Under the pieces are notes generated by a model that worked only from the letters and a program-made list of their open reading frames with translations, searched no databases and was not told where the DNA came from. From Escherichia coli (GTDB lineage: Bacteria; Pseudomonadota; Gammaproteobacteria; Enterobacterales; Enterobacteriaceae), in NCBI RefSeq assembly GCF_003334765.1, contig NZ_QOWT01000023.1: a stretch of DNA of 64,000 nt. One strand, written 5' to 3'. Shown here one piece after another: positions 47,215-48,509 of this stretch (its first letter is position 1; the number at the start of each line of letters is the position of its first letter). Position numbers and translations under genes: made by a program.

Positions 47215-47489
47215 GATTATCTATGTCTGGCAAGAGAAAATTCTATAATAGTATGATTTCTTTGTTTATTTTGTTTTTCAATTAGAATGGTGTGTTTTTG
47301 TGATCTATGTCTAATTGTTTTGTATTCTTAGCGCCATCCCATTCATGGGCAGATGTACATACCGCCCCTATTAGATTGATGGGTTGCATGTTCATTGTAT
47401 CTGTAAAATATGCCAGTTTTGACATTAATACATAATCTGTAATTCGGTGTAAGCTCTTGTCTGGTGAATTATGTTGCGTATTCCGCTCT

Positions 47490-47560
47490 ATTCGATCACG
47501 GATTGGGCCAAATCATGATCGATTCGAATGCCAAACTGCGATCGATTCAGATGCCATTTT
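47490..47560. repeat. GATC-dense direct repeats inside a 1.3-kb AT-rich non-coding region (candidate origin or regulatory site)
   Basis: GATCACGG, GATCGATTCGAATGCCA and GATCGATTCAGATGCCA within about 70 bp: four GATC sites and a ~17-bp imperfect tandem repeat. Confidence 0.45.
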
Positions 47561-48509
47561 GCATTATGTTAGTGGCTTATTCTTCTTGTTCTTTTTTACA
47601 GGTTATGTAAGTGTGATTATCCTGATTACTGGTCACTCATTATATACTGAGTCGACAAAACAAATGAGTATTAACTGAAGTTTTTATACAGTGATCATCT
47701 GTCTGGTTAGGTTAGTTAGTTCTGGGAGAATCACATTTATTTCATATACCATGAATAATTAAGGTTAATTAGTATTATTAGTTGGAGTTATGGTATTGTG
47801 TGTCTGTGCCGTATTGTTTGTATATTTGTTGTATAACTTATCTCTTTACGTGGTAATGTCACTCCTCTTTATGCTAAGTATTCTGTATGTGTGTAATGCA
47901 TATATCTCCATACACTACGCAGTGAAGCATATGGGGGAAGCTGTATGGTGAATTATGTGTGTAATGTTGTCCTGTACGTACTTAACACTGGTTACGTATC
48001 GGAACACTATTAGAGCGTGTTATGACTCCGTTACAGTTTATAGGTATAGGTAAATATGATCTTTTCTGTATGGAACAATCTTCTTATGGTGTGTGGGTAT
48101 GTTCTGTATACCATTATTCTTTTATGCTAATGATTAAATACCCGTGGTCTCTCTCGGCTTTACTTAATGGTTCGACAATATTAATAGCGATGTTGCCTGT
48201 AGCTAGCCGATACTGAGTTTTGTGAATGTCAGATTACTTCCTGTAAAGAATTTAGTGGTGCTTCCTGAAACTCAATTCTATGAGGTGTGTTTTTCCATTG
48301 TAATTCGTACTGGTTCTCAGTTTAAGAGAGTCTCACTGTATTCTGAAGTATTACCTCATCACAGTAATGCGGTAATACAAAACAGTTTTATCAGGTTGTC
48401 TGTGCTGCTGGTTTACTTCGTTTATTAATGCCGTGGTACGGCGTTTCTCTACTCTCAGTATTTACGTAAGTCTCTCTTCCTGTGAGTTTTATAAAGTAAG
48501 GACTATAAA

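Follow-up and report, generated by a model that had tools for sequence, protein, structure and literature searches.

In Escherichia coli, the non-coding DNA upstream of a gene for a Gp2-like protein of the YagK/YfjJ family contains a 25-nt site, AATTAAGGTTAATTAGTATTATTAG, which, as judged from the loci compared here, is the only deeply conserved non-coding sequence of the region and accompanies every Gp2-like gene of its clade. The region was analysed in a stretch of 64,000 nucleotides (contig NZ_QOWT01000023.1 of RefSeq assembly GCF_003334765.1; hereafter the window, to whose positions all coordinates refer unless another locus is named), where a gap of 1,375 bp (47135-48509) separates the stop codon of an upstream open reading frame (ORF), at 47134, from the ATG of the Gp2-like gene, at 48510. 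This gap is best explained as a non-coding control region, with the scar of an unrelated mobile element embedded in it, that serves a replication-type module of two genes in a genomic island of the integrase/AlpA type. Within that region the 25-nt site may be the cis target, as a nick site or a binding site, of the adjacent protein, which carries the HUH and Y motifs of HUH nucleases; this is the reading towards which we lean, without being confident of it. Much of what first drew attention to the gap is largely ordinary, namely an AT-rich intergenic region of an island and a miniature insertion sequence (IS) scar. What appears to be new, on the strength of the comparisons below, is a cis element with sharp boundaries that is found throughout the clade and goes with a very common but uncharacterised island gene, and no description of the site was found in the searchable literature.

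The core of the site, GGTTAATTAGTATTATT, lies at 47763-47779 and corresponds to the consensus GGTTA[A]TTA[G/A]T[A/G]TTATT, and the site includes an inverted repeat, TAATTAA-GG-TTAATTA, that is imperfectly conserved. At three or fewer mismatches, AATTAAGGTTAATTAGTATTATTAG occurs once in the 64-kb window, against an expectation of 0. Among E. coli-type islands the site is unchanged or differs by one or two substitutions despite unrelated left flanks, and, with zero to five mismatches and in the same orientation, it stands upstream of the Gp2-like gene in all 19 of the fetched loci that have enough upstream sequence. It is found ahead of homologues in E. albertii, in Citrobacter (52% protein identity), in Erwinia and Edaphovirga (58%) and in two metagenomic lineages (about 62%), and it extends to Budvicia (37%), where it reads GGTTAATTAATGTTATT, and to Atlantibacter and Mixta (36%), where it takes the form of a 1-nt deletion variant, AGGTTATTAGTGTTATT. 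A few bases beyond the site, on each side, conservation is already at background (alignment A3). The distance from site to ATG depends on the lineage (156, 168, 272, 349, 588, about 735-810 or about 1,000-1,150 nt), and the site is always upstream and on the strand of the gene across every genus sampled.

The same association emerged from a metagenome collection scanned with the exact pattern, which returned 120 places, made up of 17 plus 2 matches with the 5′ extension ATT[A/T]AGG and 101 without it. A Gp2-like ORF lies downstream on the same strand in 17/17 of the first group, the 2 further extended matches are on contigs that end before the position of the gene, and not one of the 101 chance matches lacking the extension has a Gp2-like gene (0/101). 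The extended matches include a lineage from a very AT-rich organism whose protein is only 30% identical. A scan of a genome collection returned only 7 loci, and one of viral contigs a single E. coli-type island. Moreover, the site tracks the Gp2-like gene and not the primase gene that follows it in E. coli-type islands, for it is kept in loci whose Gp2-like gene is followed by AlpA, by a DUF7828/zinc-ribbon pair or by a restriction-modification system.

Two lineages have repeat arrays that adjoin the site, starting within about 40 nt downstream of it. In one (L020 3017-3110; L030 1562-1652), a 13-bp unit, TGTAAnTnnAnCY, is present in 6-7 copies; in the other, from Citrobacter (L027 3745-3857), a 22-nt unit is present in 3 copies spaced by 45-46 bp, the first copy being the 3′ half of the site. 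Locus L020 comes from a metagenome-assembled genome labelled Collinsella sp. (JAIJJM010000108.1), and its enterobacterial-type site and Gp2 module are nearly identical to those of the metagenomic loci L030 and L031; its contig is probably a binning contaminant rather than an actinobacterial island. Across the leaders, the 5-mer GTAAT/ATTAC, which was picked post hoc, is present at about 2.3-2.5 times the expected number (34 vs 15; 24 vs 9.6), including occurrences at 47853-48376 of the window, and the enrichment of the k-mers CTGTA and GTAAT is moderate, likewise post hoc, and missing in some lineages, which makes it no more than a lead. The sequence AAATTAC of a conserved block close to the ATG, described below, includes ATTAC. 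Between the stop codon of the Gp2-like gene and the start of the primase gene, at 49083-49103, the two halves of the site (GTATTA..TAG and AATTAAG) recur with their order permuted in the sequence GTATTAGGTATTAGAATTAAG, which could be due to chance in AT-rich DNA or could mark a second binding locus.

The protein encoded next to the site is a plausible nuclease, as far as its modelled fold and motifs indicate. H87 and H89 of the GLHIH motif and Y157 and K160 of the RYxLSYLAK motif are nearly invariant in an alignment with 22 homologues, the structure model is confident, its long structural matches include HUH nucleases, there is a structural match to an IS200-type TnpA, and the comparison with the Pfam family REP_ORF2-G2P gives E = 0.003. 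The ratio of non-synonymous to synonymous divergence in the gene is about 0.1-0.35, that of a gene under purifying selection. Nearly all homologues end in RGRPR (window 49050-49067; alignment A2), an AT-hook-like tail, for which the TTAATTA tract of the site is a possible binding target. A preliminary description of this DNA, made from the window alone, had placed the block directly 5′ of a rolling-circle-type initiator gene and a primase-helicase gene, and this arrangement stands: the HUH-type gene, with its HUH and Y motifs and its confident model, is followed by a gene in which an archaeo-eukaryotic primase (AEP) is joined to a superfamily 2 (SF2) helicase. HUH nucleases need a specific DNA target, which normally lies beside their gene, as in rolling-circle plasmids, single-stranded DNA phages and relaxases. 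We favour a cis target because the site is the sole deeply conserved non-coding element, is always found with the gene, lies at a freely varying distance from it and is adjoined by repeat arrays in two lineages.

In the mechanism we propose, the Gp2-like protein would bind the 25-nt site, possibly aided by contacts of RGRPR with the TTAATTA tract, and would nick the T-rich strand there; rolling-circle copying of the excised island could follow, for which the primase-helicase would provide the unwinding and priming. The site might also overlap the promoter/operator of the module, as is usual for HUH initiators, and the long AT-rich spacer together with a hairpin at the ribosome-binding site (RBS) would keep the gene silent until induction. 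A more extensive version of this proposal, which is conceivable and to be held loosely, is that the consensus core given above would be the nick site or origin of YagK/YfjJ Gp2-like HUH proteins, that site and gene would form a minimal rolling-circle replication or mobilisation module, that the GTAAT-type repeats would be iterons and that the half-sites at 49083-49103 would be a second binding locus.

Two known arrangements resemble what is proposed. In the Ff phages (f1/M13), the intergenic region upstream of gene II holds the gpII nick site and the origin. As in the E. coli islands, several hundred bp of non-coding DNA with a T-rich sense strand precede a gene II-type HUH gene and would contain a cis site for the adjacent protein. 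The islands differ from Ff in that their DNA does not resemble the Ff origin in sequence, conserved hairpins could not be found, the protein is only distantly related and the setting is an integrated island rather than a phage, and nicking is here a proposal. The HUH Rep origins of rolling-circle plasmids and of circular Rep-encoding single-stranded (CRESS) DNA viruses combine an invariant nick motif with lineage-specific iterons beside rep, and the site is similar to them in being conserved beyond the level of protein identity, in having lineage-specific repeats beside it in some loci and in lying upstream of a rep-like gene. Its core, TAGTATTAT/TAATATTAT, resembles the nonanucleotide of such origins, NANTATTAC; the likeness concerns an AT-rich string and breaks in two lineages, which have TGTTAT.

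Several points weigh against a nick site or binding site for the HUH protein. The hairpin-loop geometry of many HUH origins is absent, because in most lineages the site is not enclosed in a loop by flanking inverted repeats, a point of difference from Rep origins too (such repeats are not enriched; combined Fisher p = 0.84 over 12 lineages), and because its internal inverted repeat is not maintained, the left arm varying without compensatory changes. Iteron-like arrays occur in two lineages only, and in the window, as in E. coli-type loci generally, no clear one is seen, which is again unlike Rep origins. In K-12, the relative of the site upstream of yagK falls in a fragment that binds RNA polymerase (RNAP) holoenzyme and has a promoter assignment, which favours a transcriptional role. 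The primase gene of strain E2348/69 is a pseudogene, so that the module cannot work as proposed in some strains. Each functional step, whether nicking, binding or replication, is in addition something that we infer.

A role in transcription is the alternative that has to be weighed most closely. It holds that the site is a promoter with an embedded regulator element, serving an AlpA-family protein or autoregulation by Gp2, and that a long leader keeps the operon silent (through H-NS, premature termination or an occluded RBS) with no nicking at all; we regard it as rather unlikely in this exclusive form, and promoter/operator and cis target are not mutually exclusive. The site does contain a -10-like TATTAT, these islands have AlpA-family genes in their core, and a hairpin at the Shine-Dalgarno (SD) sequence shows that at least the last ~50 nt act as mRNA. 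The spacer upstream of yagK binds RNAP holoenzyme in vitro and is listed, from genomic systematic evolution of ligands by exponential enrichment (SELEX), with an RpoD constitutive promoter, TTTAGA-16-TATAAT, that overlaps an H-NS site (PMC3946193), and the predicted yagK -10 and spacer cover a motif-like sequence, GGATAGGTATTATATAATGG. The H-NS site so listed is also the only indirect pointer to the H-NS silencing that the preliminary description had thought likely for the block. AlpA of Pseudomonas aeruginosa loads at a promoter-embedded element between -35 and -10 and reads through leaders, past terminators upstream of the first gene (PMC7969949). Against this, no -35 element is conserved across loci at 16-18 nt from the -10-like hexamer, and the only promoter call near the site (47730-47759) uses a -35 in the non-conserved flank. 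The hexamer is TGTTAT in Budvicia, Atlantibacter and Mixta and so has lost the A at position 2, which is normally essential in sigma-70 promoters. The pieces shared with yagK are spaced 3 nt closer in the window, the leaders have no consistent intrinsic terminators, and the plus strand is C-poor and would make a poor Rho substrate. It would be unusual for the 5′ untranslated region of a single gene family to range from ~130 to ~1,100 nt, and a second conserved block, at a fixed 46-60 nt before the ATG, looks more like a true expression signal. The P. aeruginosa AlpA promoters share with these loci an AlpA-family gene (in the same islands), a conserved sequence before a -10-like hexamer and a long untranslated stretch; they differ in that the site has no similarity to GGGACG-N5-GGTA, no conserved -35 and no consistent terminators, and the AlpA-like proteins of E. 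coli islands are not known to antiterminate. The K-12 genes yagK and yfjJ, of the cryptic prophages CP4-6 and CP4-57, encode the same protein family behind a related upstream sequence, (A)TAGGTA(T/A)TATATA (the yagK-type variant being GGTATTATATAAT), but the gaps are only 271 and 152 bp, the motif differs, its spacing is not preserved and no AEP primase follows the gene.

Other explanations carry less weight. That the gap, save for its ATG-proximal signals, is functionless AT-rich filler tolerated in a horizontally acquired island and coated by H-NS, with the site a binding place for a host nucleoid protein or a recombination hotspot at module boundaries, we consider quite improbable. Most of the gap diverges about neutrally with many indels, insertions are tolerated in it at no apparent cost (the miniature IS of the window, IS1 in strain TOE17, an IS3-family element in O157), its length varies from about 540 to 1,375 bp and the site coincides with the start of similarity between island types; yet a 17-nt asymmetric sequence kept across genera amid randomised flanks, always pointing towards a Gp2-like gene and never found without one, is unlike generic binding by H-NS, IHF or Fis, and to our knowledge it fits no consensus of these proteins. 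It is very improbable, too, that site and gene form a transposon-like HUH unit in the style of IS200/IS605 or IS91, with the site as one terminus. The Gp2-like protein is small and single-domain and has a structural match to IS200-type TnpA, the site is a sharp homology boundary, and the genes downstream of Gp2 differ between genera. Such a unit is unlikely because no second end was found: the 64 kb contain the site only once, and no conserved sequence or motif-like element lies downstream of the Gp2-like gene across lineages. In addition, the unit is present at one to few copies per genome inside islands and is not dispersed. Equally hard to credit is a regulatory or structural non-coding RNA, such as a partner RNA for the primase or HUH proteins, although the region is long, ORF-free and strand-asymmetric in composition, lies beside genes for nucleic-acid enzymes, contains local hairpins and is conserved over its proximal 360 nt among E. 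coli-type islands. There is no Rfam match even at an E-value of up to 1: within the gap, scanning 44-52 kb by E-value and the whole window at the gathering threshold returned only microRNA matches on a 22-bp hairpin (47171-47217), spurious and caused by the hairpin. Minimum-free-energy z-scores of 47734-48509 are -0.37 (plus strand) and -1.75 (minus strand), no better than for shuffled sequences; for the proximal block, consensus folding gave z-scores of -1.4 and -2.5, with one compensatory pair out of 51-58. A large consensus-fold z-score for 47747-47930 was rejected as an artefact of a gappy alignment with near-zero energies. Substitutions accumulate no more slowly than at synonymous positions, indels are frequent, and in other genera the region is ~130-250 nt and cannot be aligned beyond two short blocks. 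The suggestion in the preliminary description that the block might encode a regulatory RNA thus finds no footing in Rfam, folding, covariation or substitution pattern, the sole exception being the local hairpin at the RBS.

The feature that had been put forward as a candidate origin or nick site lies elsewhere in the gap, at 47490-47560, where four clustered GATC sites and an imperfect tandem repeat of about 17 bp had been described. GATC-containing direct repeats do exist there, but the sites number only three (47494, 47517 and 47540) and the two copies of GATCGATTC[G/A][A/G]ATGCCA (47517-47533 and 47540-47556) recur with a period of 23 bp (2.2 copies by Tandem Repeats Finder). All of them are contained in an 89-bp, internally deleted IS21-family (ISSso4-like) element flanked by a 6-bp target-site duplication (TSD), TTATGT. 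Its first part (47475-47506) is 100% identical to positions 419-450 of locus L005, on plasmid AP022162, which form the IS end beyond istB of a full element, and its second part (47507-47563) is 100% identical to positions 3001-3057, the IS end upstream of istA. The full copy is flanked by CTCCGC and has at least five units of the type ATGCCAA-N-TGATCG upstream of istA, of which the window keeps the last two 23-bp units; each of the terminal repeat units in the parent IS contains a GATC. IS21-family ends are known for having multiple terminal repeats, which are binding sites for the IstA transposase. With istA and istB absent and 89 bp left, the window element is a remnant or miniature derivative and not an autonomous IS. 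Exactly 89 bp and one copy of TTATGT are missing from the homologous islands of HSP425 and FDAARGOS_401 (L006, L007; alignment A1), which keep the whole Gp2-primase module; the repeat block is thus neither native nor conserved in these homologous islands. When the gap was compared by megablast with 5,426 complete E. coli genomes, the segment 47507-47566 recurred alone on many chromosomes and plasmids beside IS genes, in up to 45 places per genome, and a 65-bp sibling in plasmid NZ_CP173470 (L153 1501-1565) has the same two ends around one internal repeat unit, which indicates that miniature derivatives of this IS arise or move repeatedly. Given IS termini joined by an internal deletion, TTATGT flanks and empty-site alleles, the repeat cannot be regarded as an iteron array belonging to the island, and an iteron or Dam/SeqA-controlled island origin or nick site at 47490-47560 deserves next to no credence. 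As an origin or nick site the idea fails at the GATC repeat and may hold instead at the 25-nt site. The miniature IS, as its structure indicates, transposed into the spacer and has no native role there. Identical termini, multiple direct terminal repeats, a 6-bp TSD and an empty site liken it to IS21-family and miniature inverted-repeat transposable element (MITE)-like derivatives, from which its 89-bp length, its lack of istA/istB and its internal deletion between repeat units set it apart, and it accounts only for 47469-47569. A conspicuous repeat in an AT-rich gap may, as here, be a miniature IS scar, a caution for scans that look for origins by repeat or GATC content.

As for the gap as a whole, it was rightly described as ORF-poor, non-coding and AT-rich. 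Its GC content is ~36%, its longest frames have 73, 68 and 64 codons, and annotation by the Prokaryotic Genome Annotation Pipeline (PGAP) is empty there in E2348/69 and NCTC9082, whose genomes are 98.7-99.8% identical. A conserved protein-coding gene, named beforehand in the preliminary description as contrary to its view, was sought by cross-allele comparison and no conserved reading frame was found across the compared alleles. The longest native frame (48222-48428, 68 codons) was rejected as a small protein, being broken by a stop or frameshift in 3/8 variants. The gap has neither a conserved protein-coding gene nor a conserved structured RNA. Without the miniature IS its composition is 39.8% T, 25.0% A, 19.9% G and 15.2% C, with an AT skew of -0.16 to -0.25 and a mostly positive GC skew. 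The T/G skew noted earlier for the plus strand is accordingly real but seen only in long versions of the E. coli type (AT skew -0.23 to -0.28); short versions in other genera lack it, and it was rejected as a module-wide signature. The whole gap has 6 GATC sites, or 4.4 per kb vs 3.9 per kb in the window, where the total count is within shuffle expectation; outside the 89-bp insert the density is ordinary. Nor is a long gap a general trait of the YagK/YfjJ family, an idea rejected in view of the K-12 spacers (yfjI-yfjJ, 152 bp; yagL-yagK, 271 bp).

Pairwise comparison with six other island versions gives a three-layer architecture (Table 1): judged in this way, the native gap is a hairpin after the upstream ORF, then ~520 bp of lineage-specific spacer, then the module from 47757. 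The hairpin begins 37 nt past the stop of the upstream 611/620-aa ORF (45272/45299-47134), and its alleles in HSP425 and FDAARGOS_401 have an A-T in place of a C-G pair, both arms being changed (alignment A1). It is terminator-like with a weak T tail and may be a terminator or a protein-binding palindrome. The spacer without the IS (47218-47756) has diverged by K = 0.12-0.13, vs a synonymous divergence (dS) of 0.10 for the upstream ORF, and its left part (47218-47468) contains no conserved ORF.

Sequence from ~47734-47757 to 48509 is common to islands whose upstream gene is of the YfjI family (DUF3987), and hence belongs with the Gp2-like gene; roughly 2,000 E. coli genomes have its 3′ 350-570 bp, at ~82-92% identity, ahead of Gp2-like genes. 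Between E. coli-type pairs the stretch from site to ATG (~730 nt) has K = 0.13-0.25 and 6-11 indels per pair, with sizes that are mostly not multiples of three, compared with synonymous divergence of 0.03-0.19 for Gp2 and 0.000-0.005 for the primase; most DNA between site and gene thus appears to drift at about the neutral rate. On the conservation map, segments 47787-47846 and 48087-48126 are rich in indels, conservation outside them and the well-conserved proximal block is intermediate, and the second of these segments includes most of the one weak terminator candidate of the window (48086-48114); across 13 leaders no consistent terminator-like hairpins were found. In other genera the alignable parts are two short blocks, one of them A[A/T]ATTAC, conserved 46-60 nt before the ATG. 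A scan of the proximal block for a sigma-70 consensus found no consistent promoter. The translation start is, to judge from the sequences, wrapped in a hairpin: in E. coli this brackets the SD sequence and extends to the start codon, and in other lineages the pyrimidine stretch pairs with the SD sequence and sequesters it. The arms covary between lineages (CUUCCU/AGGAAG, CCAUGAA/UUCAUGG, AUCCC/GGGAU). An IS3-family element lies between leader and Gp2-like gene in E. coli O157:H7 EC4115 (L008 4650-5863), and the primase is a frameshifted fragment in E2348/69 (L001 14073-14402), from which it follows that the module has decayed in several well-known pathogens.

Table 1. Features in and around the gap upstream of the Gp2-like gene, by window position.
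Feature	Position	Strand	Remark
Perfect hairpin, 22-bp stem and 3-nt loop	47171-47217	+	I1 in the inverted-repeat list, arms 100% complementary
Lineage-specific AT-rich spacer, left of IS	47218-47468	.	only in islands with the same 611-aa upstream gene
Left TSD copy, TTATGT	47469-47474	.	empty-site alleles have a single copy (ATTCTGT context)
89-bp internally deleted IS21-family (ISSso4-like) element	47475-47563	+	both ends match full istA/istB element
Right TSD copy, TTATGT	47564-47569	.	
Rest of lineage-specific spacer	47570-47756	.	similarity to YfjI-type islands starts at ~47734-47751
Invariant cis site, AATTAAGGTTAATTAGTATTATTAG	47757-47781	+	left edge of Gp2-associated module
Fast-evolving, indel-rich, T/G-rich spacer/leader	47782-48146	+	moderately conserved sub-blocks 47847-47926 and 48027-48086
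Conserved proximal region of E. coli-type module (last ~360 nt)	48147-48509	+	from conservation map
Inverted repeat	48348-48378		in proximal region
Small GC hairpin	48430-48442		in proximal region
Cross-genus block ATTTAC	48460-48465		window form of A[A/T]ATTAC
Pyrimidine stretch, CTCTTCCT	48474-48481		
Hairpin UUUUAUA/UAUAAAA	48487-48510		brackets SD sequence, extends to start codon (E. coli)
SD sequence AAGGA	48498-48502		
Gp2-like (YagK/YfjJ-family) HUH protein gene, 187 aa	48510-49073	+	motifs GLHIH and RYALSYLAK, C-terminal RGRPR
AEP primase (Pfam AEP-TOTE, 2e-98) fused to SF2 helicase	49228-51588	+	start per PGAP; ORF open from GTG 49150

In E. coli-type islands the AEP primase-helicase gene follows the Gp2-like gene as its partner. 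Compared with L006, L007 and L011, it has a dS of 0.000-0.005, against differences of 13-21% in the leader and a dS of 0.03-0.08 in Gp2; so nearly identical a primase gene beside a divergent leader points to mosaic recombination, to gene conversion or to a recent sweep of that gene. Its Pfam name recalls the TPR-OB-TBP-Effector (TOTE) systems defined in the literature. The annotated neighbours in near-identical islands are an integrase, DUF3987, a helix-turn-helix (HTH) protein, a hypothetical protein, the Gp2-like protein and IS fragments. The module is not a TOTE system, as TPR-OB (cold-shock-like), TBP-like and effector partners are not annotated around it in those islands, and AEP-TOTE is here the name of a domain subtype and not of a system. 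Searches with NCBIfam and PADLOC models gave no match for Gp2, the 620-aa ORF, DUF3987 or the HTH protein, and only generic PrimPol and helicase models for the primase. Literature searches on Inovirus_Gp2, PF11726 and TOTE with primase returned nothing relevant beyond the TOTE definition and island-level mentions; a recent preprint describes Gp2-like proteins as frequent and probably core genes of integrase+AlpA transducible islands and assigns them no function. Elsewhere in the window, a single CRISPR-DR4 match to Rfam (41718-41745) lies just upstream of the island integrase (42023-43240), and NCTC9082 has an annotated 'RtT sRNA' at the equivalent place. ARAGORN found no tRNA anywhere in the 64-kb window. 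Downstream of the module, Rfam gathering-threshold matches are to the adjacent STnc100 and STnc490 and to a group II intron D1-D4 domain (54682-55026 and 55732-55902), and further matches are to RybB (3941-4019) and naRNA4 (16717-16797).

About 2,000 of the 5,426 complete E. coli genomes carry the upstream region of the module, and Gp2-like (YagK/YfjJ) genes are among the most frequent in islands that integrate at tRNA and tmRNA genes. A clade-wide cis site makes the function of the Gp2-like proteins directly testable and provides a sequence tag for locating such modules. If the site is indeed the target of the HUH protein, site and gene would be the minimal module of a very common class of islands, the integrase+AlpA islands and phage satellites of Enterobacterales and beyond.

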